Source: Escherichia phage EcS1. From it: DNA of 64,000 nucleotides. Every line of letters starts with the position of its first letter. The stretch's first letter is position 1. The position numbers and the translations under genes are program-made. Below the pieces are notes generated by a model. The model did no database searches and was not told where the DNA came from. It saw nothing but the letters and a program-made list of their open reading frames with translations. This document shows positions 20,586-56,248 of this stretch, one piece after another. The stretch is from the sequence record NC_055721.1; one strand, given 5' to 3'.

Positions 20586-20781
20586 TTGCAGCCTTTAAAA
20601 GGGTTAATTCTGATTCCATGTGAACAGATTCAGTACCATCTGACCATGAAACTTCATATGCTGGTTCAACCTTGTATTTCAGGATTCCAGGTGTATACAT
20701 TATAACCACACCCGGGATAAATCCTGAAATATGCTGAACTGGGGTTCCTAGTTCAAATTTCACTTTATAACCTTGACCCAT
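20557..20781 (-). CDS. Hypothetical small protein
   Basis: ORF only. Confidence 0.3.
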   Translation of the reverse strand: MGQGYKVKFELGTPVQHISGFIPGVVIMYTPGILKYKVEPAYEVSWSDGTESVHMESELTLLKAANDDCYEPAC

Positions 20782-20926
20782 TCTGGGAATTCGATGAAAT
20801 CAGGAGCGTCAATTTCACAAATCATCATACCTGCATTCACAGTAATATTACCTACTTCAATCATAGGATTTGATTGAAGGCTTTGTGATAAGCGTTTTGC
20901 ATCAGAAACTTGCACGAAAAGAATCA

Positions 20927-21376
20927 TTATTTCACCCCATAAGAAACGAAAGCTTCGCCAGTCTTTTTGACCACAATAACTCGTACACCATCAGAAGCAT
21001 TTCTGAGTTGACTTACCGCAAAGTCTTTAGCTTCTTGTTCAGTAAAAGGACCATTTGGTAGAGGCAGATTGCTTTTGCTTGTAGGAATAGTGATAGTCCA
21101 GAAATCTTGTTCAGTATCAACACGAATAAACTTCTTAGATATTTCATTCTGTAAGAACATACACCAAACGTTGTCGAACTCGCCTTCATTTGCTTTGAAG
21201 GTGCCTTTATCAGTACGAACTGCAATGATGTTTCCATCCTTATCTAGTTCAGCAACTTCAAACTCACCGAAACCTATTAAACGTTTCCATGCAGAAGCAA
21301 AGCCTGCACTACGGTCTTCCATGAATTGTTTACCAGCTTCAGTCCATTTGTAAACGATTTTTTCAGACGTCAACAT
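20927..21376 (-). CDS. Hypothetical protein
   Basis: Start at internal ATG (MLTSEK) preceded by GAGGAAATTG RBS and a UUCG hairpin. Confidence 0.45.
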   Translation of the reverse strand: MLTSEKIVYKWTEAGKQFMEDRSAGFASAWKRLIGFGEFEVAELDKDGNIIAVRTDKGTFKANEGEFDNVWCMFLQNEISKKFIRVDTEQDFWTITIPTSKSNLPLPNGPFTEQEAKDFAVSQLRNASDGVRVIVVKKTGEAFVSYGVK

Positions 21377-22795: not shown

Positions 22796-22990
22796 TTATT
22801 TTACATGACTGAATTCTACATCAGACCAGATGCCGAAAGGCGGAAGATTAGGTTCTTCTTTAAAGGCTAACTTTTTGACATCAGTCCAAGGCCAACAGCA
22901 AACTTCGTGCTCGTATAACCAGCATGTTCCTTGCAAAGGACTCTCAGGATGCATTTCTATAATTTTATAAACCAAAGTTTTCTTGAACAT
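22796..22990 (-). CDS. Hypothetical small protein
   Basis: Start moved to internal ATG with GAGGTG RBS; the track start lies inside the terminator hairpin. Confidence 0.35.
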   Translation of the reverse strand: MFKKTLVYKIIEMHPESPLQGTCWLYEHEVCCWPWTDVKKLAFKEEPNLPPFGIWSDVEFSHVK

Positions 22991-23015
22991 ATTCACCTCA
23001 TACAGATACAAAAAT

Positions 23016-23033
23016 GGGAGACCGAAGTCTCCC
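23016..23033 (-). terminator. UUCG-tetraloop terminator (GGGAGAC-UUCG-GUCUCCC then AUUUUUGU)
   Basis: Plus GGGAGACCGAAGTCTCCC; member of a dispersed repeat family. Confidence 0.7.
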
Positions 23034-23038
23034 ATAAC

Positions 23039-23218
23039 TTATGCTACAGCTCGCGGCTTTCCAAAACGAGAAGCATCGTCGCGTAACACGGCTCGTGCAC
23101 GACGCATAATCTTCTCAACTGTCTGATTAATACGCTTGTTCGACCCACGCTTATATTTCGCGCGTTTAGAGGTACCAACTACTTCTTTAACTGCTTGTTT
23201 CTTAGCTTGCTTAGCCAT
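23039..23218 (-). CDS. Small highly basic protein (59 aa; MAKQAKKQAVKEVVGTSKRAKYKRGSNKR...), not in ORF track
   Basis: ATG to TAA ORF verified by manual translation; Lys/Arg-rich; followed by terminator. Confidence 0.4.
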   Translation of the reverse strand: MAKQAKKQAVKEVVGTSKRAKYKRGSNKRINQTVEKIMRRARAVLRDDASRFGKPRAVA

Positions 23219-28662: not shown

Positions 28663-28898
28663 AGTTTGTCAATCTCATTGAATATATTAAGCAAAGTTTT
28701 GTTAAGTTCGTATTCACTTAAATCGATTTCTTCAATTCCGTCTTTACGGCTAATAGACCCAGACCGAATACGATTAGTGGTTATCTGATTAACCCCGCCT
28801 GTGCATTTTGCACTTTCACATAAAGAGTACATCTTTGCTTTTAATTGAGTTTTTAGGTCCGGCGAATTAATCATATGTACAAAATCAAGACCAGTCAT
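28659..28898 (-). CDS. Hypothetical small protein
   Basis: 79-aa ORF. Confidence 0.35.
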   Translation of the reverse strand: MTGLDFVHMINSPDLKTQLKAKMYSLCESAKCTGGVNQITTNRIRSGSISRKDGIEEIDLSEYELNKTLLNIFNEIDKL

Positions 28899-29064
28899 AA
28901 CTTAATTCCTTATACAAAGCTTCGCGAGCAGCCTTAAGTTCTTTGGCTGATTCATATGCACATTTATCGTCGATTAATGACATTGCAACTTGTGTCTGAC
29001 GTTGACCATGTAGTTTGGCTTTGAGTTCATAAGCTGCAAACAAATCTTTCAATTTATCATTCAT
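28885..29064 (-). CDS. Small protein, tandem paralog (P1; 59 aa, not in ORF track)
   Basis: Manually translated: MNDKLKDLFAAYELKAKLHGQRQTQVAMSLIDDKCAYESAKELKAAREALYKELSYDWS; resembles P2/P3. Confidence 0.4.
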   Translation of the reverse strand: MNDKLKDLFAAYELKAKLHGQRQTQVAMSLIDDKCAYESAKELKAAREALYKELSYDWS

Positions 29065-29603: not shown

Positions 29604-29760
29604 AAGATTTTAAAATCAGTTTAATAGCTTTATATGCAAAGATTAATATCATACCAAATGCTATTAAGCCAGTCATACCACTAGCACAACCAACGCTGCA
29701 ACGCATGCAAGCAGAGCAACAACCAATCCTGCACAAAACAATGTAGCGCCTAAAGTCATT

Positions 29761-34156: not shown

Positions 34157-36418
34157 TCAAAGTTTACAAGAAGAGCAATCTTCTTCTTTTGGAACTTCGA
34201 TTTCATAATCATCAGTACCAGAACCATCACGAGTATTATGATAGTAAGCTGTCTTACCACCGAAGTACCACAGATGAAGCATATCATCCATCATGACTGA
34301 CATCGGAACCTTACCTTTAGGGTAGTTCTGTGGGTCATAGTACATGTTAGTAGAAATAGACTGACATACGAATTTCTGCATAATTGCTACTTGATTCAAG
34401 TAACCTTTATTACCAGATTTCGCTAACTTCCAAGCATAATCATAAAGATCAACATTAGTATCAACATTAGGCACAACTTGGTTAAAGGAACCTTCTTTCG
34501 ATTCTTTAACACTTACAGGCCCACGTGGCGGCTCGATACCATTAGTGCTATTTGATACCTGGCTCGAAGATTCACAAGGCATGAGCGCGGATAAGGTACT
34601 GTTACGGATACCGTAACTTCTGAGGTCTTCCCGCAACTGTTCCCAGTCACAAACGTACGATGGGGCTGCGAGTTGGTCAATCTTTTTATTGTACCAGTCG
34701 ATAGGTAACTCGCCTCTAGACCAACGAGTGTCTGAATAATACTCGCAATGGCCTTTTTCTTTCGCTAATTTGACTGATGCTCTGATGAGTGCATATTGAA
34801 GTCTTTCCATCATTTCGTGAGTTAAATCGTTTGCATCATTATATGATGCAAAGTTATCAGCTAACCAAGCAGCATAGTTCGTGATACCAACACCGAGTGC
34901 ACGACGTTTTTTAGCTTTCAAAGCTTCCGGGACAGGATAACCTTGATAGTCTAATAAATTATCTAAAGCACGAACTTGTACTTCGGCTAATTCGTTAATT
35001 TCGTCTTGGTTCTGCCAATCGAAGTTACCGAGTACATAAGCAGATAAAGTGCAAAGTGCGATTTCTGGGTCTTCACCACCAACGTCTTTAGTAGGAAGCG
35101 CGATTTCACAGCACAAGTTTGATTGCTTAACCGTAGCCACATCACGAATAAAAGGACCATACTCACCGACGTTATCTACAAAGTAAGGGTAAATACGAGC
35201 CGTACCTGAACGTTCAGTAAAGAACAATTCGAAGAGCTCGCGAGCTTTAATTCGTTTCTTACGAACCGTAGGATCTTTTTCTAAAGCTTCATAGAAATTA
35301 CGGAACTTCAGAGGGTCAGCAAAATACGCTTCGTAAAGTTCGCCTTTCATGATGTCAGGACTGAACAACGTGATGTAATCATTTTTAACCAAACGTTCAA
35401 ACATCAGGTCATTAATCTGAACACCATAGTCTAGATGACGAATACGGTTTTCATCTACACCTTTGTTGTTCTTCAGAACTAACAGGTTTTCCACTTCAAG
35501 ATGCCATATCGGATAATACAACGTTGCTGCACCACCACGTACGCCACCTTGTGAACAACTCTTCACTGCGGTTTGGAAATGTTTCCAGAATGGAATCACC
35601 CCAGTATGTTTGACTTCACCATGACCAATCTTAGAACCTTCAGCACGAATCATACCACCATTAATACCAATACCAGCACGTTTACTGATATAACGAATAA
35701 TAGCTTCTGCACCTTTGTTAATTGATGTCAGTGAATCACCACTTTCAATAACAACACAAGAACTAAACTGACGAGTTGGAGTACGAACACCTGCCATAAT
35801 AGGAGTAGGCAACGAAACCTTACGAGTTGAAACAGCATCATAAAAACGAACTACGTTCTTAATACGATGTTCACCATCATCTTGGTGCAAACACATACCG
35901 ATAAGCATGAATGCAAATTGAGGCGTTTCATAAATCTTGCCAGTTGAACGATCTTTGACTAGGTATTTTTCGATTAACTGCATCGTACCAGCATAAGTGA
36001 ATTCAAAGTCACGGTCGTGTTTGATTTGAGATTCAAACAACTGGATTTCTTCTGCAGACCATTTGCTTAGGATTTCGGTGTCATAAAGACCTGCGTTAAC
36101 TACTGAAGAGATGTGGTCGATAAACCGAGGTGGTTCGAATTGATTGAAAACATCTTTACGAAGACCAAACATAGCTAGATTACTTGCTACATATTGATAA
36201 TCTGGTTCGTCAACTGTAATACGGTTAGCAGCAACTTTAATAACTGCTTTATGAATTTCTTTAGTGGTCATTCCATCACGCAGATGACTTTTAACTTCTT
36301 CATAAAGGTCATAAGGGTTAACGGCTATAGATGTACTTGCGCACGACCATTCAAGGACTTGGATGATTTTACTTGGTGTAAAATCTTGACTAACGCCTGA
36401 ACTTTTTATTACTTGCAT
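34157..36418 (-). CDS. nrdA: Ribonucleotide reductase large subunit (class Ia)
   Basis: Start at MQVIKSSGVSQ (T4 NrdA starts MQLINVIKSSG); active-site NLCCEI; ~753 aa. Confidence 0.9.
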   Translation of the reverse strand: MQVIKSSGVSQDFTPSKIIQVLEWSCASTSIAVNPYDLYEEVKSHLRDGMTTKEIHKAVIKVAANRITVDEPDYQYVASNLAMFGLRKDVFNQFEPPRFIDHISSVVNAGLYDTEILSKWSAEEIQLFESQIKHDRDFEFTYAGTMQLIEKYLVKDRSTGKIYETPQFAFMLIGMCLHQDDGEHRIKNVVRFYDAVSTRKVSLPTPIMAGVRTPTRQFSSCVVIESGDSLTSINKGAEAIIRYISKRAGIGINGGMIRAEGSKIGHGEVKHTGVIPFWKHFQTAVKSCSQGGVRGGAATLYYPIWHLEVENLLVLKNNKGVDENRIRHLDYGVQINDLMFERLVKNDYITLFSPDIMKGELYEAYFADPLKFRNFYEALEKDPTVRKKRIKARELFELFFTERSGTARIYPYFVDNVGEYGPFIRDVATVKQSNLCCEIALPTKDVGGEDPEIALCTLSAYVLGNFDWQNQDEINELAEVQVRALDNLLDYQGYPVPEALKAKKRRALGVGITNYAAWLADNFASYNDANDLTHEMMERLQYALIRASVKLAKEKGHCEYYSDTRWSRGELPIDWYNKKIDQLAAPSYVCDWEQLREDLRSYGIRNSTLSALMPCESSSQVSNSTNGIEPPRGPVSVKESKEGSFNQVVPNVDTNVDLYDYAWKLAKSGNKGYLNQVAIMQKFVCQSISTNMYYDPQNYPKGKVPMSVMMDDMLHLWYFGGKTAYYHNTRDGSGTDDYEIEVPKEEDCSSCKL

Positions 36419-36437
36419 TTTTGTCCCATATTGTGAA

Positions 36438-36445
36438 TATAAATA
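36438..36445 (+). promoter_or_regulatory. Late promoter box TATAAATA upstream of GIY-YIG endonuclease gene
   Basis: Exact box 26 nt upstream of ATG 36471, followed by GAGGAG RBS. Confidence 0.5.
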
Positions 36446-36470
36446 CCAAAATATAGAGGAGTTACCCCAC

Positions 36471-37229
36471 ATGAAATCAGGCATTTATAGAATAATTAAC
36501 ATTAATAATAACAAATCTTACGTTGGCAGCACTATAGACTTCCAAGCAAGATGGAAACGACATTTTTCGGATTTGAAGAACGGGTGTCATTCTTCAATCA
36601 AACTCCAACGTTCATACGATAAACATGGTAAAGATTCATTCGTTTGTGAAATAGTTGAGCAGACTCCATATGATGAATCTATAATTTCATTAGAAGATTA
36701 TTATATCATCTATTTTGATTCAAAACAAAACGGATATAATATTGCTAACGCAGCATTTGGCGACACTTTATCGCACCACCCTAACAAAGAAGAAATATTT
36801 AAGAAAATAAGCATTTCTCTTAGAGAAAACAATGAAAAACTTTCTGAAGAAGAAAGGAAAAATAAATTTGGAAGTAAAAGTTGTAAGAAAGGTAAAAGCT
36901 ACGAAGAATTTTACGGAGCTAAAAAGGCTCAAGAAATAGGTCTTAAACTTTCAGAAAGCAATTATAATAGACAAATGTCTGGAACTAATAATCCATTCTT
37001 TGGTAAGACACATAGTGACGAAGTTAGAAAGAGAATTTCTGCCACACAGAAAGGACGTAAGAAACCTCATGTTAAATTAAGTATAGAAGGAACTATTTAT
37101 CAATCAGTGGCAGAAGCAATGAAAGCCACAAATCTTTCTCGTAAAGTTATAGAAAGACGTTGTGGCTCTGAATTATTCATAGATTGGTTTAGACTTCATA
37201 TAGCCATTTTACCTTTAATTGGAGGGTGA
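36471..37229 (+). CDS. Free-standing GIY-YIG homing endonuclease (I-TevI/Seg-like)
   Basis: N-terminal GIYRIININNNKSYVGST...RWKRH GIY-YIG module; repeated basic NUMOD-like linker (GKTHSDEVRKRIS); opposite strand to flanking td and nrdA; 3' end overlaps td 3' end. Confidence 0.85.
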   Translation: MKSGIYRIININNNKSYVGSTIDFQARWKRHFSDLKNGCHSSIKLQRSYDKHGKDSFVCEIVEQTPYDESIISLEDYYIIYFDSKQNGYNIANAAFGDTLSHHPNKEEIFKKISISLRENNEKLSEEERKNKFGSKSCKKGKSYEEFYGAKKAQEIGLKLSESNYNRQMSGTNNPFFGKTHSDEVRKRISATQKGRKKPHVKLSIEGTIYQSVAEAMKATNLSRKVIERRCGSELFIDWFRLHIAILPLIGG

Positions 37230-38059
37230 CTTTCATAATTTTTCAAAACAAAGTCTTCATGCATTGTCATTTCAGTTACCCAAGTCAATTGAGCATGAGT
37301 TGTAGACACGTCAAAGTTAGAAGGTAGACCTTTGATTTCTAACTGACACAGCTCTTTAGGTTCACGTCGTAGAATTTCTTTACACTGTTCTACATGGTTC
37401 AAATAGATGTGTGTATTGCCGCCTGAGAACACTAAGTCACCTGGAATAAGATTACACATCTTCGCTACGATATGCACAAGAGCGGCGTATGACGCAATAT
37501 TAAATGGCAATCCTAAGAACACGTCAACACTTCGTTGATACCATTGCAAGTCTAGGTGGCCTTCACGCACGTTGAACTGATAGAACATATGACAAGGTGG
37601 AAGAGCCATCTTATCAATTTCAGCTGGGTTCCATGCTGAAACAATTTGACGACGATCATTAGGCATAGCCTTGATACGCTCAATTGTTTTAATTACCTGG
37701 TCGACGCCACCGAAATCTCGCCATTGCTTCCCATAAACAGGACCAAGTTCGCCACCAGAATAGCCAAGGTCTTTTGCTTGGTTTTCATAGTTATCGTCCC
37801 AAATAGTGTTACCGTCAAGATAAGAACCATGTGTACGGAATCGAAGGTCATTGACATTTGTAGAACCAGACAAGAACCACAGAAGCTCAGAGATACAGGC
37901 TTTCCATGCTAATTTCTTAGTCGTTACAGCTGGAAAACCTTTAGTCAGGTCCCAGCGTAGTTTAGTACCGAACAATGCTATCGTACCAGTTCCAGTACGA
38001 TCATCAGTTTCATAACCATTAGTCAAAATGTGTTGAATCAGATGTTGATATTGCTTCAT
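37196..38059 (-). CDS. td: Thymidylate synthase, uninterrupted
   Basis: 287 aa (T4 Td 286); conserved active-site region LPPCHMFYQF; no intron. Confidence 0.9.
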   Translation of the reverse strand: MKQYQHLIQHILTNGYETDDRTGTGTIALFGTKLRWDLTKGFPAVTTKKLAWKACISELLWFLSGSTNVNDLRFRTHGSYLDGNTIWDDNYENQAKDLGYSGGELGPVYGKQWRDFGGVDQVIKTIERIKAMPNDRRQIVSAWNPAEIDKMALPPCHMFYQFNVREGHLDLQWYQRSVDVFLGLPFNIASYAALVHIVAKMCNLIPGDLVFSGGNTHIYLNHVEQCKEILRREPKELCQLEIKGLPSNFDVSTTHAQLTWVTEMTMHEDFVLKNYESHPPIKGKMAI

Positions 38060-38469: not shown

Positions 38470-38758
38470 TTTTGTAGAATCGACCAGTGATAACCATCAC
38501 AGGACCATTCTCTGAATCATTATAAGTCACATTACCTGCAGCATGACCTAAGAACCATGTTTTAGTAGAAGTGCCGATATAAACAGGCTCATTGCCTTTA
38601 TTGTTATACATGCAGCAGTCTTTAGACCATTGGTACAATTCATTGACTGGAATTTCTACACGATAGATTCCATGCTCGTGACGCCAATTCTTCCAGACTT
38701 TTTGTTTCTTGTCTGCTTCAAGAAGAGTTAAGTTATACCCCAGTTTTGACATATACAT
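38411..38758 (-). CDS. Hypothetical protein, tandem paralog (frd.x-like)
   Basis: See above. Confidence 0.45.
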   Translation of the reverse strand: MYMSKLGYNLTLLEADKKQKVWKNWRHEHGIYRVEIPVNELYQWSKDCCMYNNKGNEPVYIGTSTKTWFLGHAAGNVTYNDSENGPVMVITGRFYKIGSEVYINPLEEHYAPNIT

Positions 38759-39341
38759 CCTCGCTGATATTTGTTACTGCATCAATATGATAATAGTGAG
38801 ATTCTTTAAACAAGAAACCAGAGTCTTCGCGCGCTGGAGCAACAATAAAGCTCATTGGCAATTGAGTGTCAGAGTTCACCCTGTGACGTTTACGGATAGA
38901 GGTTTGTATTACCTTATCTGAGAATGGATAAGCTTGCTGAAGTAGTCCTGCACCACCTATCACTGAATATACACCTTCTTCACGACTAAAGATAGCATTG
39001 AAATCAGCATTAGGGCTAGAAACTTGAAGTTCATGACCGTTCAGGAATTTATCGAATTGATAGTCACTTATATAAAAGTGAGCCAATGAGCCATCTTGAG
39101 TTGTAGGATAGTCACGAGACAAATCGCAAACAACTACATGAGGGCGTCCTACTAGTGGCTTAGGGAAACTAGAAAACGTCTTAGCTCCCATAATTAAAGT
39201 AGTGCCTTCAGTACGAGCTTTAAAGTTTTTAAGGTCTTGAGGAATATGGCCCCATGGTAACCCACCATTTATTCCAAATGCAAATTCATTTTCGCCTGAA
39301 ACAGTTTTAGTCCCAGCATAAGCATAAATTAATTGAATCAT
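38733..39341 (-). CDS. frd: Dihydrofolate reductase
   Basis: DHFR signature GINGGLPW; start at MIQLIYAYA; position upstream of td. Confidence 0.85.
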   Translation of the reverse strand: MIQLIYAYAGTKTVSGENEFAFGINGGLPWGHIPQDLKNFKARTEGTTLIMGAKTFSSFPKPLVGRPHVVVCDLSRDYPTTQDGSLAHFYISDYQFDKFLNGHELQVSSPNADFNAIFSREEGVYSVIGGAGLLQQAYPFSDKVIQTSIRKRHRVNSDTQLPMSFIVAPAREDSGFLFKESHYYHIDAVTNISEDVYVKTGV

Positions 39342-39574
39342 TGATTTTCCCACCATTCAATAGCTTTTTTAACATCACAAAAATAATCAGAATTAATGCA
39401 ACCACCGAATTCATCGTATAGGCACACTTCAATGAAACTAAGGCGTAAATGACAATCTGATTCATGCATAGCTTGTTCTGCATGCATCTCAAAAATAGAT
39501 AAATCTGATGATGTGAATGCACAATGGAGAAGATAATTATGGTCTTCGCCTTTGTATGAAATTGTTGTAATCAT
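39338..39574 (-). CDS. Hypothetical small protein
   Basis: 78-aa ORF. Confidence 0.35.
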   Translation of the reverse strand: MITTISYKGEDHNYLLHCAFTSSDLSIFEMHAEQAMHESDCHLRLSFIEVCLYDEFGGCINSDYFCDVKKAIEWWENQ

Positions 39575-39774
39575 CGACGTACCTCTTCAGCCATTTCTTC
39601 GAGAGCAGGGATTAGTTTGCGGGAGAATTCAATATTAGGGCCGCGGCCTATACGAGAAAAGAAGCCTGAAGTCATTTCTTTATGAGCCTGACGCATTGCA
39701 TCGCGTACCAATAAGACTCCTTCAGCACGAGCATCTTTAAGCAGTTTATCAAGTTCTTCTTTACTAATTTCCAT
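39571..39774 (-). CDS. Hypothetical small protein
   Basis: 67-aa ORF. Confidence 0.35.
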   Translation of the reverse strand: MEISKEELDKLLKDARAEGVLLVRDAMRQAHKEMTSGFFSRIGRGPNIEFSRKLIPALEEMAEEVRR

Positions 39775-39868
39775 AGCCTTGCCTCATTCCACATTGAATA
39801 CACTTGCCACCAGCGAACATAAGTCCACACCCACAATACTTACATTCCCAATCAGTCAGAATTCTCAT
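39764..39868 (-). CDS. Candidate zinc-ribbon mini-protein (34 aa; CxxC-x10-CxxC), not in ORF track
   Basis: Manually translated MRILTDWECKYCGCGLMFAGGKCIQCGMRQGYGN; ATGA overlap with upstream stop and 11-nt overlap with downstream start. Confidence 0.3.
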   Translation of the reverse strand: MRILTDWECKYCGCGLMFAGGKCIQCGMRQGYGN

Positions 39869-40143
39869 TTTGTTTTCTTAGCAATTTTCCAGGCAGCTTT
39901 GAAAGCTTCGACTTCTTCAATTTCAATCCAAAAACCAGAACCAAAGCCATCGTCATAACAAGGACAGCCGTCGCAATAGTCTTCCCAAGTAAGATCACGA
40001 CCGCCAAGAGAAGAACCAGTTTCCATTGCACGCAGACGAATTTCAGCAGCTTCAATAGCTTCAGGGTCGTTACCTTCAATAGTGAAGTACCATTTTCCAC
40101 GATATTCATTACCTAAGTTGATTGAGTTACGTTTAAGTTTCAT
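39865..40143 (-). CDS. Hypothetical small protein
   Basis: Start at ATG 40143 with GGAG RBS downstream of promoter 40170-40198. Confidence 0.4.
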   Translation of the reverse strand: MKLKRNSINLGNEYRGKWYFTIEGNDPEAIEAAEIRLRAMETGSSLGGRDLTWEDYCDGCPCYDDGFGSGFWIEIEEVEAFKAAWKIAKKTK

Positions 40144-40169
40144 TTTATTCTCCTTGTTGGTGTAGAAGC

Positions 40170-40198
40170 ATAATACCATACCTCTACACCGTTGTACA
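40170..40198 (-). promoter_or_regulatory. Early-type promoter (-10 TATTAT, -35-like TGTACA) flanked by inverted repeat GGTGTAG/CTACACC
   Basis: Cassette nearly identical over ~45 bp to the one at 58003-58042. Confidence 0.45.
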
Positions 40199-40537
40199 CT
40201 ACTTATTGAAAGTCTTTTTGATCAATGCAATCATTTCTTCTGCATTGCCTTCGTAGACAGTCAAAGTTATCGACTCATCTTTTATTTTTTCAAAGTATTT
40301 GAATTCACCTTGTGCTAGTTCAAAGTAAGGGACAAAACCACCTGAACCTGCAACTTGCCCATTGGCAAACTCGATTTCATCTACATAAAGGTCATAATCA
40401 CATTTACTAACATTTCGAACAGTGAACCAACCACCATTCTTATCGATCAAACGAACCATTTCATTGTTACAATGAGCATTTTCCATGAAAGCTGAGGTGC
40501 ACTCTTCTTTCAAGCGATATTTTTTATCAACTTGCAT
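40199..40537 (-). CDS. Hypothetical protein
   Basis: 112-aa ORF. Confidence 0.4.
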   Translation of the reverse strand: MQVDKKYRLKEECTSAFMENAHCNNEMVRLIDKNGGWFTVRNVSKCDYDLYVDEIEFANGQVAGSGGFVPYFELAQGEFKYFEKIKDESITLTVYEGNAEEMIALIKKTFNK

Positions 40538-40539
40538 TT

Positions 40540-40770
40540 TTATTCACCTGATTCAACAATTGTATCAAAAAGTTCTTCAATCATTTCTGGGTACATGCCA
40601 ACACAGTACTCACGGTTTAGATAAAGATTGATAGTACGACGGTCACCTTCAATAGTGATTTCCATACTGTAACCATTAGTAACACATTCAACTTCTTTAA
40701 GATTGTACTTATCAAGACAAGTCTCTTTGAAATAAGCATAATCGTAGATATCAATAGTTACTTTAGCCAT
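40540..40770 (-). CDS. Hypothetical small protein
   Basis: 76-aa ORF with GAGGAAAAC RBS; early promoter upstream. Confidence 0.4.
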   Translation of the reverse strand: MAKVTIDIYDYAYFKETCLDKYNLKEVECVTNGYSMEITIEGDRRTINLYLNREYCVGMYPEMIEELFDTIVESGE

Positions 40771-40800
40771 TTTGTTTTCCTCACTTGTTTGTAGGAAAAC

Positions 40801-40829
40801 ATCTTACCACATCTAAATGAGGTTGTAAA
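40801..40829 (-). promoter_or_regulatory. Early promoter (-35 TTTACA, 17 bp, -10 TAAGAT)
   Basis: Immediately downstream of gene 32 terminator. Confidence 0.5.
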
Positions 40830-40842
40830 CAGATACAAAAAT

Positions 40843-40860
40843 GGGAGACCGAAGTCTCCC
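40843..40860 (-). terminator. UUCG-tetraloop terminator after gene 32 (GGGAGAC-UUCG-GUCUCCC then AUUUUUGU)
   Basis: 34-bp sequence identical to the element at 23002-23035. Confidence 0.7.
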
Positions 40861-40867
40861 ATCATTA

Positions 40868-41773
40868 TTACATACCTGCTAACAGAGCATCTAAGTCGTC
40901 TTCATCAGCACCACTTGGTGTGGTATCACGAGATTGGACATTAGTACGAGCTGTATCAGTAAAGTCTTTCATATCTTGGTCGAAGGCATCAAGTGAATCA
41001 CCGATTGCATCAGCCTGAGCAGAAGCTTTAGCGGCAGCACCACCAAGTGCAGCGATACCAAATACTTGTTCAAATTTCTTCTGGTTTACATCCAGAGTTT
41101 TGAACTTATCTTTAGAAGTCAGTTCGCTCAAATCAGACATATTGTCATTGAGGAATGTCTGGAACGTTTCGTCGTTGATATTAGGGATTTCAGATTGACC
41201 TAAGAATTTAGAGTCATCATAGTTCTTGAAATCACCGACTTTCTTAGTTTTCAGTACGAAGTTCGCACCATCGAAAGGACATGTCACATCGACTGGAGTT
41301 TCACCGATAGAGGTATCAACTTCAACCATTGCTGTGATTTTGTCGTATACTTTCTGACCAAAACGGAACTTGAATACTTTACCTTCTGTTTCTGGGTTAG
41401 CTTTATCTTGAACAACCAAGATGTTAGCCCAGTATGAAGTCTTACGCTTCAGGAGTTGGTATTCAGGCTTATTCGTATTGTACGAATCATTTTTAGACAG
41501 ATATTGGCAAACTGGACAGTTATCAAAGTCACCATGAGTAGAAGTACAGTTTTCGATGTACCATTTACCATTTTTCTTGAAACCGTGATTCACCAGCTTA
41601 GCAAACGGAAGACCTTCATCACCTTTACCTGGAAGGAAACGAATAACAGCCATGCCATTACCGTTGTCGTCTTTCAATTTCCATTCATTCTTATCGTCAG
41701 AAGAGAAACCTTGACCACCTTTCAGAGAAGCCAGTTGTGCTTGAAGAGCTGCAGGATCTTTACGCTTGAACAT
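40868..41773 (-). CDS. 32: Single-stranded DNA-binding protein gp32
   Basis: 301 aa as T4 gp32; near-colinear ([45 protein letters not shown]). Confidence 0.9.
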
Positions 41774-55315: not shown

Positions 55316-55590
55316 AGATAATCCTCAAAATCGCAGACTTGAATTTCATGTTCAATCATAGCAACAACTTCAGCTTCACTTATTGTTGATGTGGTTATCA
55401 CGACAGTAATTGTGCCATTATCCCACAAGTAGACTAACCAATCAGGTCCAGCAGAATCTTTTAAACGCGCATCGAGTTCATCCATTAAACCAGACATAGT
55501 ATAACTATTAATGTCGTTTTTCTCAATGACTTTCTTTATAAGTTCACATTCATAAATGAATGCTTGTGCTTGATATCGTTGTTTAATCAT
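55312..55590 (-). CDS. Hypothetical small protein
   Basis: 92-aa ORF, overlapping start/stop with neighbours. Confidence 0.35.
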   Translation of the reverse strand: MIKQRYQAQAFIYECELIKKVIEKNDINSYTMSGLMDELDARLKDSAGPDWLVYLWDNGTITVVITTSTISEAEVVAMIEHEIQVCDFEDYL

Positions 55591-55853
55591 TTCAAGTTAT
55601 CCTTCAAGTATTGGTTAAATTCGTTAAACGCTACTTCAAGTGAAGATGAATCACGAGAAATGAAACGAAAACCACCTGCTGTAAACTCTAGTTCTTCAAT
55701 AAAGACATGATGGTCATCCCAGACCTTTTTGCGAGCATTAGCAACAACACTTGTGTTATGGAAGATGCTAGAGCGAGCATAGCCAGCAATAACTTCTTTA
55801 GATGTAAAATTGTAGACATATTCTACTTTAACTTCTTCAGGATTAAATTTCAT
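55587..55853 (-). CDS. Hypothetical small protein
   Basis: 88-aa ORF. Confidence 0.35.
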   Translation of the reverse strand: MKFNPEEVKVEYVYNFTSKEVIAGYARSSIFHNTSVVANARKKVWDDHHVFIEELEFTAGGFRFISRDSSSLEVAFNEFNQYLKDNLK

Positions 55854-55960
55854 TTAATTTACCTTTGTGCTTCTGTTTACGTTTAGATTCTTCTTGTGTT
55901 TTCTTTTTATTTTTATGAACAGAAGCACGATTAAAATCATTTTTAGCAACCCAGTTTCTT

Positions 55961-56248
55961 TCATTCATTTTCAATTTTCTCAAGTTTTTGTTCAAGGCGT
56001 TTAATCATATCAGCAGTCATTTGGATATAAAGTTCCATAAGCAAAGGCTTTAACTGACCGTTAATAGGTGGAGTAAATGGACAAACATAATCAGTTTCTA
56101 ATAATTGTTTAGCTAAGCTCGAATCACAGAATTGGAACCCAGCTTGATTAGCATATTCACCCCAACCTTCTTTCATCATTTCAATAGCTCGTTTCAGAGC
56201 ATTGATTTGATTGTTCAGAGCATCGATTTGAAGAAGTTTAATGTTCAT
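55961..56248 (-). CDS. Hypothetical small protein
   Basis: 95-aa ORF. Confidence 0.35.
   Translation of the reverse strand: MNIKLLQIDALNNQINALKRAIEMMKEGWGEYANQAGFQFCDSSLAKQLLETDYVCPFTPPINGQLKPLLMELYIQMTADMIKRLEQKLEKIENE

Follow-up and report, generated by a model that had tools for sequence, protein, structure and literature searches.

The subject of this analysis is a 34-codon open reading frame (ORF), here called the mini-ORF, in Escherichia phage EcS1 (NC_055721.1). The window, i.e. the whole 64,000-nucleotide (64-kb) stretch that was analysed, is T4-like phage DNA (Straboviridae, Winklervirus-like), and all positions given below without a further label are positions of this window. The mini-ORF is located between frd.1 and frd and is a genuine protein-coding gene under purifying selection. 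Its 34 amino acid (aa) product, MRILTDWECKYCGCGLMFAGGKCIQCGMRQGYGN, is a fresh sequence variant of phrog_17317, a catalogued protein family of unknown function, and it carries four invariant cysteines that most likely hold one Zn2+ ion in a two-knuckle zinc ribbon, as judged from the members of the family and from a structural model.

A conserved mini-gene and its predicted zinc ribbon

A sequence-only reading of the window had described a 34-codon ORF with CxxC-x10-CxxC spacing wedged between two small genes, and such an ORF is present on the minus strand at 39764-39868. Its cysteines occupy positions 9, 12, 23 and 26, and the window copy has a fifth cysteine at position 14. It contains the only CxxC-x5-20-CxxC motif in the six frames of the 64-kb window, where mononucleotide shuffles average 0.27 such motifs. 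The same reading proposed ATGA-type overlaps at both ends of the ORF. This holds for the 5' end, where the ATGA at 39865-39868 joins the start of the mini-ORF to the stop codon (TGA) of Frd.1/DUF5417, but not for the 3' end, where the 67-aa gene begins at 39774 and the two frames instead share 11 nucleotides (nt; ATGGAAATTAG). Relatives of the mini-ORF are 30-32 aa long and end in ATG AGG CAA GGn TAA TG, with the stop codon overlapping the start of the next gene and the codons for M-R-Q-G providing the GAGG/AAGG Shine-Dalgarno sequence of that gene. In the window, too, the Shine-Dalgarno sequence of the 67-aa gene (GAGGCAAGG) is built from the M-R-Q-G codons, and the conserved 3' end of the mini-ORF, ATGAGGCAAGGnTAATG, doubles as Shine-Dalgarno sequence and start of the downstream gene. 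The stop/start junction reads GGCTATGG in the window and in the IMG/VR contig L020 (175,437 bp) but GGCTAATG in relatives, that is TATG versus TAATG, and as a consequence the stop codon is lost, three lineage-specific last codons (YGN) are gained and the overlap with the next gene extends to 11 nt. Contig L020 is identical to the window over the 405 bases compared (the mini-ORF with 150 bases on each side), and the exact 34-aa protein of the window is absent from a collection of 15 billion proteins.

The sequence-only reading staked its proposal on a reading frame that is conserved in related phages, and this is what is found. In a tblastn search of a phage collection the mini-ORF is matched in 291 records, in 284 of which at least 80% of it is covered with the frame intact. 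These matches are distributed over at least ten T4-like genera, including Winklervirus, Marfavirus, Jiaodavirus, Gelderlandvirus, Krischvirus, Kanagawavirus and Mosugukvirus. At the protein level residues 1-31 align with positions 1-31 of the 31-position phrog_17317 profile, a full-length match with an E-value of 3.5e-19 (69 bits). Codon statistics are based on 15 unique nucleotide versions from annotated genomes and 11 IMG/VR loci (degenerate DNA pattern). None of these 15 versions contains a stop in the mini-ORF frame, whereas each of the other five frames is interrupted in 5 to 15 of them. At codon positions 1, 2 and 3 the variable sites number 19, 12 and 29 of 30, respectively, the mean proportions of synonymous and nonsynonymous differences are 0.67 (pS) and 0.18 (pN) with a pN/pS of 0.27, and the median ratio of nonsynonymous to synonymous substitution rates (dN/dS) is 0.14. 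The mini-ORFs of CHI14 and S16 differ by 10 nucleotides, all 10 of which are synonymous. None of C9, C12, C23 and C26 is replaced in any of 12 diverse members, and their codons show synonymous changes; I3, L4, D6, K10, G13, L16 and G20 are invariant as well, and the conservation of W7 reaches at least 90%, RB49 having a Y instead. The segments conserved outside the cysteines are the N-terminal ILTDW and a hydrophobic loop between the knuckles, L16-(M/W/L/Y)-x-(A/L/V/I)-G-G. An explanation of this conservation by RNA structure was dropped on account of a fold z-score of 0.08 and an RNAalifold consensus that contains no pairs across 10 relatives; Rfam gives no match in the 64-kb window.

Two conserved CxxC knuckles with a short β-hairpin between them, the arrangement by which a zinc ribbon is recognised, are found in the 12 members and in an AlphaFold2 model based on 12 aligned sequences (mean pLDDT 77, short strands). 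The zinc-ribbon call of the earlier reading is favoured by both the four invariant cysteines and a model of moderate confidence. In a Foldseek comparison with the PDB the model is closest to ZRANB2 ZnF2, TRABID NZF1, Nup153, RanBP2, RYBP and TAB2, with template modelling (TM) scores of 0.5-0.67 and a root-mean-square deviation of ~2.3 Å over 23-33 columns, at E-values of 0.3-6, none of which is significant. A fold search of the viral database BFVD returns only the same family and uncharacterised viral zinc ribbons. Of the 31 positions of the family profile, 27 align in collinear order with the RanBP2-type finger of RBM10 (E = 0.0064), and MDM4 and ZRANB2 are matched as well. RanBP2-type fingers follow the pattern W-x-C-x2-C-x10-C-x2-C, which is present in the mini-protein (DWECKYC-x10-CIQC) and in all repeats of those proteins examined that are positive for PF00641. 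PF00641 (gathering cutoff 27 bits) is absent from the Pfam matches of the window protein at E-values up to 10 and from the best 25 of 32 families across the 12 members. Zn_ribbon_3 is matched by 9 of the 12 members (best E 0.0034) and DZR_6 by 5 of them (best E 1.9e-4), in all cases below threshold. RanBP2-type and DZR-type ribbons are not separable by hhalign, which gives 97.5% for RanBP2-type repeats and 96.9% for bacterial DZR-type ribbons, both sets having been pre-selected by similarity to the query. An exhaustive hidden Markov model search of 1.84 billion representatives retrieves three true family members of 30-32 aa, which suggests that the mini-ORF is never fused to anything larger. 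Long multi-repeat proteins are also matched in this library, six of which Pfam identifies as proteins with multiple RanBP2 fingers. Overall, the mini-protein is best described as a generic two-knuckle zinc ribbon whose nearest predicted structural neighbours are RanBP2/NZF fingers, a specific homology not being established.

Gene order, proposed expression and module junctions

The closest published genomes are those of the Winklervirus members Erwinia phages Gravdalen and Vettismorki and Serratia phages X20 and CHI14, at ~85% nucleotide identity. The genes of the window are arranged in the order 32, frd.3, frd.2, frd.1, mini-ORF, 67-aa gene, 78-aa gene and frd. T4 has the order 32, frd.3, frd.2, frd.1 and frd, shows no trace of the mini-ORF and has a gap of 71 nt in the place of the three-gene insert of the window. 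At all 21 loci examined the mini-ORF and frd are located on the same strand within ~680 nt. The mini-ORF lies 0-550 nt downstream of frd.1 and, in 20 of the 21 loci, from abutting to ~680 nt upstream of frd, with four loci in which it directly abuts frd; RB49 is the sole locus of the 21 with the mini-ORF immediately downstream of frd. Among Escherichia-phage records only 48 carry the mini-ORF, those listed being RB49-like, compared with 413 that match the surrounding 8 kb. T4 Frd.2, whose homologue lies two genes upstream of the mini-ORF, is reported to be an early protein with a predicted LSm-like fold, and T4 frd.2 amber mutants plate equally on non-suppressing and suppressing hosts, which makes the gene non-essential in the laboratory (PMC12152347). 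Frd.1/DUF5417 (39865-40143) contains a C-D-G-C-P-C cluster with three cysteines, and a similar CDGCP is seen for T4 Frd.1 in the tblastn output.

In Yersinia phage phiR1-RT the mini-ORF retains MKILTDCGCKYCGGGLLF and has lost the second CxxC, and by its sequence it is a decayed copy. The mini-ORF is dispensable in some lineages, as T4 does without it and the phiR1-RT copy has decayed. The decayed mini-ORF of phiR1-RT (locus L009, 1165-1299) directly follows the string 'YFYTNKENKM', and the window has 'LCFYTNKENKM' at 40144-40179, before the start of Frd.1. The shared string is the translation of a conserved promoter and ribosome-binding site (RBS) segment (...CTTCTACACCAACAAGGAGAATAAAATG). In phiR1-RT frd.1 appears to have been deleted, with the promoter/RBS segment joined straight to the remnant of the mini-ORF.

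Promoter-early stem-loop (PeSL) elements consist of a stem-loop, an early promoter, a Shine-Dalgarno sequence and a start codon, and their PST/T4-type promoter consensus is TTTACW-N17-TAYWAT (PMC4122927). Their occurrence in the hyperplastic regions of T4-like phages goes back to Arbiol et al. 2010, as cited by Comeau et al. 2014 (PMC4122927). In the window a terminator hairpin with a UUCG tetraloop and a T-run (40863-40840) is followed by TTTACA-N17-TAAGAT (40829-40801), a GAGG and the ATG of Frd.3 at 40770, and comparison with the consensus shows that the element at 40801-40863 has the composition of a PeSL. The transcript that includes the mini-ORF is likely to begin at this PeSL-type element. 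The second promoter-like site, just upstream of frd.1, is located within an inverted repeat (GGTGTAGAGG ... CTTCTACACC) at 40150-40198 that places the -10 element in a stem-loop, and the repeat may represent a second, different PeSL-like element. No late (TATAAATA) or MotA-type motifs are found on the coding strand at 39700-41000. The promoter context and the presence of frd.2 in the same cluster suggest that the expression of the mini-ORF is early and accessory.

It is proposed that transcription would proceed from the early-type promoter or promoters downstream of gene 32. The Shine-Dalgarno sequence of the mini-ORF itself is weak (ctaagaaaacaaaATG), which makes it most plausible that translation of the mini-ORF would depend mainly on termination-reinitiation at the ATGA shared with Frd.1. 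The final codons of the mini-ORF (ATG AGG CAA GG.) would in turn give a Shine-Dalgarno sequence to whichever gene comes next. This scheme of expression is considered fairly probable.

The hairpin that follows the stop of gene 32 (40840-40863), ATGGGAGAC-TTCG-GTCTCCCAT with its T-run, also follows the stop of gp30.9 (23010-23032), both copies being on the minus strand. An early-type promoter is found after the gene 32 copy and none after the gp30.9 copy. Translation of the hairpin gives the spurious peptide 'GDFGLPFLYL', which appears in an ORF at 40758-40865 and at the N-terminus of the ORF at 22796-23035. The true start of the latter is probably an internal ATG giving MFKKTLVY....

The two ends of the mini-ORF coincide with changes in the relatedness of the phages. 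The window and X20 are 90% identical upstream of and within the mini-ORF and 21% identical, i.e. unrelated, downstream of it. CHI14 has an X20-like upstream flank (96%), a mini-ORF with 89% identity to that of S16 versus 74% to that of X20, and a downstream flank that is unrelated. As far as these alignments go, the mini-ORF is a conserved island, both ends of which would act as recombination joints between gene modules. The 11-nt overlap and the YGN tail of the window copy sit at such a module junction.

Proposed function and its alternatives

The mini-protein is viewed as a peptide that would have no room for a catalytic site and would instead serve as a non-enzymatic binding module, with the loop L16-hydrophobic-x-hydrophobic-G20-G21 shown to a partner from the host or the phage. 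The partner would more likely be a protein than an RNA, and the target would be bound early in infection. The role of the mini-protein would accordingly be that of an accessory host-adaptation factor and not of a core replication function. This proposal, a non-enzymatic binding module for a host or phage macromolecule that acts early, is put forward tentatively. A bolder version of it is unlikely, in which the mini-protein would be the stand-alone phage counterpart of the largely eukaryotic RanBP2/NZF finger, its loop neutralising a host factor early (a defence or takeover target) and its gene, thanks to the conserved ends, persisting as a portable 96-nt cassette in exchange between T4-like genera by recombination. 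Ubiquitin binding by NZF fingers involves a Thr-Phe dipeptide right after the second Cys and a hydrophobic residue at position 25. This signature is absent from the 12 members of the phage family, which have Gly throughout at position 13, C/S/G/A/E at position 14 and Q/K/N/H at position 25.

An equally unlikely alternative is a single-stranded RNA-binding finger of the RanBP2 type, like those of ZRANB2, RBM5, RBM10 and FUS, that would take part in phage mRNA metabolism, perhaps together with the LSm-like Frd.2/GoF-family protein. The collinear alignment with the RBM10 finger (E = 0.0064), the top position of ZRANB2 ZnF2 in Foldseek, the multi-RanBP2-finger proteins in the large library, one of which has an RRM domain, the side chains of the peptide (four basic and two acidic) and the predicted LSm-like fold of Frd.2 (PMC12152347) are all consistent with such a role. 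In the RanBP2 fingers that bind RNA, however, R19 and R20 contact guanines, with Asn at positions 14 and 24 as further signature residues, and a finger with K/S in place of the two arginines is reported to bind no RNA (PMC6384913). The numbering of that study, C12 to C26, equals the numbering of the mini-protein, the register being derived from the RBM10 substitutions described and not from an alignment figure. The phage family has A/L/V/I at position 19 and the invariant G20 instead of R19/R20, no Asn at position 14 and I/F/P/L at position 24. As R19/R20, N14 and N24 are absent, RNA recognition of the ZRANB2 type is unlikely. Furthermore, Frd.2 is not regularly found next to the mini-ORF, and T4 has Frd.2 without the mini-ORF. 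A role in transcription is more improbable than RNA binding. Zinc ribbons recur as RNA-polymerase-binding modules and early proteins of T4-like phages often target the polymerase, so that an Rpo12/RPB12 mimic or a Fin-/RbpA-like regulator might reprogramme host transcription early. Two public records (UEP19393.1 and DAH85589.1) bear RNA polymerase labels, Rpo12 is the top PDB sequence match (E = 0.0036) with RbpA as a weak match, and A2L_zn_ribbon is weakly matched by 4 of the 12 members. The Rpo12 match, however, consists of two separate knuckle pieces of 8-14 residues whose order is exchanged, residues 22-29 of the query pairing with 7-14 of the chain and residues 4-17 with 22-35. In Foldseek the RanBP2/NZF fingers come ahead of the subunits of RNA polymerase, and the Pfam family of the 7-kDa RNA polymerase subunit is missing from the matches of the window protein and from the best 25 of 32 families over the 12 members. 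Bacterial RNA polymerase is not known to have a slot for an Rpo12 subunit. The chances are lower still for a very small redox protein of the rubredoxin type, with an Fe(Cys)4 site, that would work for the adjacent nucleotide-synthesis enzymes (Frd, Td and NrdAB). The mini-protein has CxxCG at both knuckles as rubredoxins do, weakly matches rubredoxins (E about 1-4) and is tightly linked to frd at 21 of 21 loci, including RB49 where it lies on the other side of frd. The spacing between the knuckles of rubredoxins is, however, far longer than 10 residues, rubredoxins are not among the top fold matches, and T4 has the same pathway without the mini-ORF; synteny in a vertically inherited region is in any case weak evidence of a functional link.

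Two further alternatives would deny the peptide a function of its own. One of these, ranked below the redox protein and highly improbable, is that the mini-ORF is the leftover zinc finger of a degraded I-TevI/Seg-type homing endonuclease, whose sole remaining use would be as a recombination hotspot or junction. The region is populated by homing endonucleases (36471-37229 here, with I-TevI and SegG near in T4), the I-TevI linker finger CKCGVRIQTSAYTCSKC is weakly matched (E = 0.26 over the 6 kb searched), and mosaic junctions are found at both ends of the mini-ORF. Against a relic speak the strong purifying selection on the peptide across genera, the occurrence of the mini-ORF in every case as a separate frame with a start and a stop of its own and never as part of a larger protein, and the absence of I-TevI from the profile-versus-PDB matches at E-values up to 10. 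The identification with an I-TevI finger was set aside. The least probable of all the alternatives, and scarcely credible, is that the frame is open merely through its coupling signals, i.e. the ATGA start and the Shine-Dalgarno sequence of the next gene, with a non-functional peptide as a by-product. The 3' end ATGAGGCAAGGnTAATG does also serve as Shine-Dalgarno sequence and start of the downstream gene, and the Shine-Dalgarno sequence of the mini-ORF is weak. Signals at the ends, however, cannot yield four invariant cysteines with synonymous codon switches, nor I3, L4, D6, K10, G13, L16 and G20, nor variability at 29 of 30 third versus 12 of 30 second positions, and the Cys4 core is kept in RB49 and Pectobacterium phage PM2 despite their different C-terminal sequences.

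The explanation preferred here is a genuine T4-like phage gene for a 31-34-aa Cys4 zinc-ribbon mini-protein that is expressed and functions as proposed above, and as a whole it is given a slightly better than even chance. Several points count against it. The codons of the C-terminal MRQG double as the downstream Shine-Dalgarno sequence, which confounds the reading of their conservation. No Pfam gathering score is reached, DZR_6 giving 15 bits for the window protein where 23.4 would be required. The region contains 14 promoter-like sites versus 11.5 expected from shuffles, and the timing of expression rests on consensus matches. A model of 34 residues underlies both the putative binding loop and the view that a protein would be the likelier partner. 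No function of the mini-protein was found in experiments or database entries, in which the names are 'hypothetical protein' or automated. The search of the literature on the phrog_17317 family likewise found no functional study.

Annotation, other small genes and known systems

The mini-ORF had been called unannotated, which is correct relative to an ORF track of at least 60 aa but not for several relatives, in which it is annotated as a hypothetical protein of 30-32 aa: Vettismorki XPP59234.1, pzk-kv8_77, S16 gp156.2 (AGE48209.1), Pectobacterium PM2_260 and, in RefSeq, RB49p237 (NP_891808.1). It is left blank in X20, KPV15, PEi26 and the GenBank record of RB49. Automated names have been given to other homologues, namely 'DNA-directed RNA polymerase' (UEP19393.1, VAC36), 'DNA-directed RNA polymerase II subunit' (DAH85589.1) and in one case 'zinc finger Ran-binding domain-containing protein'. 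UEP19393.1 is the 31-aa homologue of Klebsiella phage vB_KpnM-VAC36 (locus L021, 800-895), and its polymerase label looks like an over-annotation, the sole basis found for it being a non-collinear, knuckle-level likeness to Rpo12. An identity of the mini-protein as 'DNA-directed RNA polymerase' was rejected, as the Rpo12 match is non-collinear.

The sequence-only reading also listed three other ORFs of less than 60 aa as genes missed by the ORF track. These exist on the minus strand at the positions given (54, 59 and 41 aa), and all four ORFs fit established families (phrog_17317, DUF2685/phrog_1043, phrog_1427 and DUF7230/phrog_1359), in keeping with the view that small genes had been lost to a length cutoff. 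By their family matches the three are ordinary known T4-family genes, UvsY.-2, gp30.9 and DUF7230, each with an intact frame in roughly 1,000 to 1,200 phage records. The 54-aa ORF reaches 90.1 bits (E = 1e-25) on DUF2685, for which the cutoff is 25, is found in 1,219 phage records and spans the T4 uvsY.-2 coding sequence in tblastn with 79% identity; it has four cysteines (CxxC ... Cx4C). The 59-aa ORF is found in 1,003 phage records and is 100% identical over residues 15-56 to phiR1-RT g210 'gp30.9'. The 41-aa ORF scores 39 bits on DUF7230 against a cutoff of 27 and is found in 1,181 phage records; its homologue among T4-type phages, PP01_259, is located between arn.1 and arn. With the TTG at 55995 as start codon the ORF would reach 50 aa, but the family profiles begin at the ATG, that of DUF7230 at the Met of the 41-aa form. 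It overlaps the upstream gene by 8 nt. The RBS support claimed for these ORFs holds for the 54-aa ORF, which has a strong Shine-Dalgarno sequence (AAGGAG with a 6-nt spacer), but not for the mini-ORF and the 41-aa ORF, in which it is weak, or for the 59-aa ORF, in which it is moderate or weak (GGAAG). Directly downstream of the DUF7230 gene, an 88-aa ORF (55587-55853, minus strand) occupies the slot of arn (anti-McrBC) in T4-type phages. The label Arn was dropped for it as no Pfam or PHROG match is found at E-values of 0.001 or below; perhaps an ORFan has taken the place of arn here.

The list of sub-60-aa genes is real in its four entries but incomplete, as a survey of the gaps on the coding strand yields at least seven further sub-60-aa ORFs that match PHROG families (Table 1). 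Four of these, which abut or overlap each other, seem to form a small-membrane-protein cluster, and the 59-aa ORF at 28885-29064 may be a fragment or have a non-ATG start upstream. The homing endonuclease on the plus strand is located between td (37196-38059) and nrdA (34157-36484), both on the minus strand, and overlaps each of them by a few codons.

Table 1. Coordinates of the mini-ORF, its neighbours and other features of the 64-kb window
Feature	Coordinates	Strand	Basis or remark
Mini-ORF, Cys4 zinc-ribbon protein (predicted), phrog_17317	39764..39868	-	34 aa; ORF list, PHROG profile and conservation
CKYC-x10-CIQC core of the mini-ORF, two putative zinc knuckles after the conserved DW motif	39791..39844	-	
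Gene 32, single-stranded DNA-binding protein, upstream boundary of the cluster	40868..41773	-	ORF and annotation of relatives
PeSL-type element directly after gene 32	40801..40863	-	Hairpin 40863-40840 and promoter 40829-40801
Frd.3 homologue	40540..40770	-	Pfam Phage_FRD3, E = 1.3e-31
Frd.2 homologue	40199..40537	-	Pfam FRD2
Second promoter-like site just upstream of frd.1, TGTACA-N17-TATTAT, TG-extended	40170..40198	-	Consensus match only
Frd.1, 92 aa	39865..40143	-	Pfam DUF5417, E = 2.1e-50, profile 1-90 from Met at 40143
67-aa gene, phrog_8520	39571..39774	-	ATG 11 nt inside the mini-ORF
78-aa gene, phrog_3183	39338..39574	-	PHROG match
frd, dihydrofolate reductase	38733..39356	-	Syntenic anchor
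Homing endonuclease, 252 aa, GIY-YIG, NUMOD3 and I-TevI DNA-binding domain	36471..37229	+	Free-standing
UvsY.-2 homologue, 54 aa	6776..6940	-	Pfam DUF2685, phrog_1043
55-aa ORF	20760..20927	-	phrog_5769, E = 3.5e-24
gp30.9 homologue, 59 aa, basic	23039..23218	-	phrog_1427, E = 7.7e-29; UUCG terminator hairpin follows
59-aa ORF	28885..29064	-	phrog_4482, C-terminal third only
28-aa hydrophobic ORF	29673..29759	-	phrog_26334, E = 1.4e-4
Basic 41-aa protein	55843..55968	-	Pfam DUF7230, phrog_1359
Four abutting or overlapping hydrophobic mini-ORFs, 58, 45, 52 and 45 aa	60245..60847	-	phrog_5941, 2501, 9347 and 3595, unknown function

The small ORFs that were missed reflect the length cutoff and nothing biological, and the finding as a whole is correct but ordinary, with nothing in it that would surprise a T4 specialist. 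In this 64-kb window alone a cutoff of 60 codons hides a dozen or so conserved genes. T4-like genomes annotate the mini-gene inconsistently, leaving it blank or giving it the name hypothetical or a polymerase label that is unsupported by the tests made here. A 31-aa four-Cys protein under purifying selection in ~280 phages is a cheap target for the discovery of function, and a tractable one because it can be chemically synthesised. If a role in host takeover or counter-defence emerged, the protein would be an addition to the list of phage micro-proteins.

The known systems to which the mini-gene may be compared differ in how far the likeness extends. The PeSL-flanked early accessory genes of T4 resemble it in being small genes of a variable region with predicted early-type promoters, with an upstream terminator hairpin and TTTACA-N17-TAAGAT, and in having module junctions at gene boundaries with neighbours that vary between phages. 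The mini-ORF, in contrast, has its junctions at its own conserved start and end and has no PeSL immediately flanking it. The RanBP2/NZF fingers of ZRANB2, RBM10, Nup153, TRABID, TAB2 and MDM4 share with the mini-protein the Cys/Trp pattern, the Asp before the Trp and a length of ~30 residues, and they are the nearest fold neighbours of its model; they are domains of large eukaryotic proteins, whereas the phage mini-protein stands alone. Bacterial ribbons of the Zn_ribbon_3/DZR/Zn_Ribbon_1 type, such as the N-terminal triple of the DUF805 membrane protein P0010, have the same CxxC-x10-CxxC spacing and the pattern [KR]YCxxCG...L...CxKCGxRQ, but are domains of larger proteins as well and are without the ILTDW segment that is conserved in the phage family. 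The closest likeness is to the members of phrog_17317 themselves (PHROGs v4, a 31-position profile with S16 gp156.2, RB49p237, Vettismorki XPP59234.1, pzk-kv8_77 and Pectobacterium PM2_260 among its members), which have the same Cys4 spacing, DW motif, strand and position between frd.1 and frd, and from which the window copy differs in its length of 34 instead of 30-32 aa, its TATG junction and its fifth cysteine.

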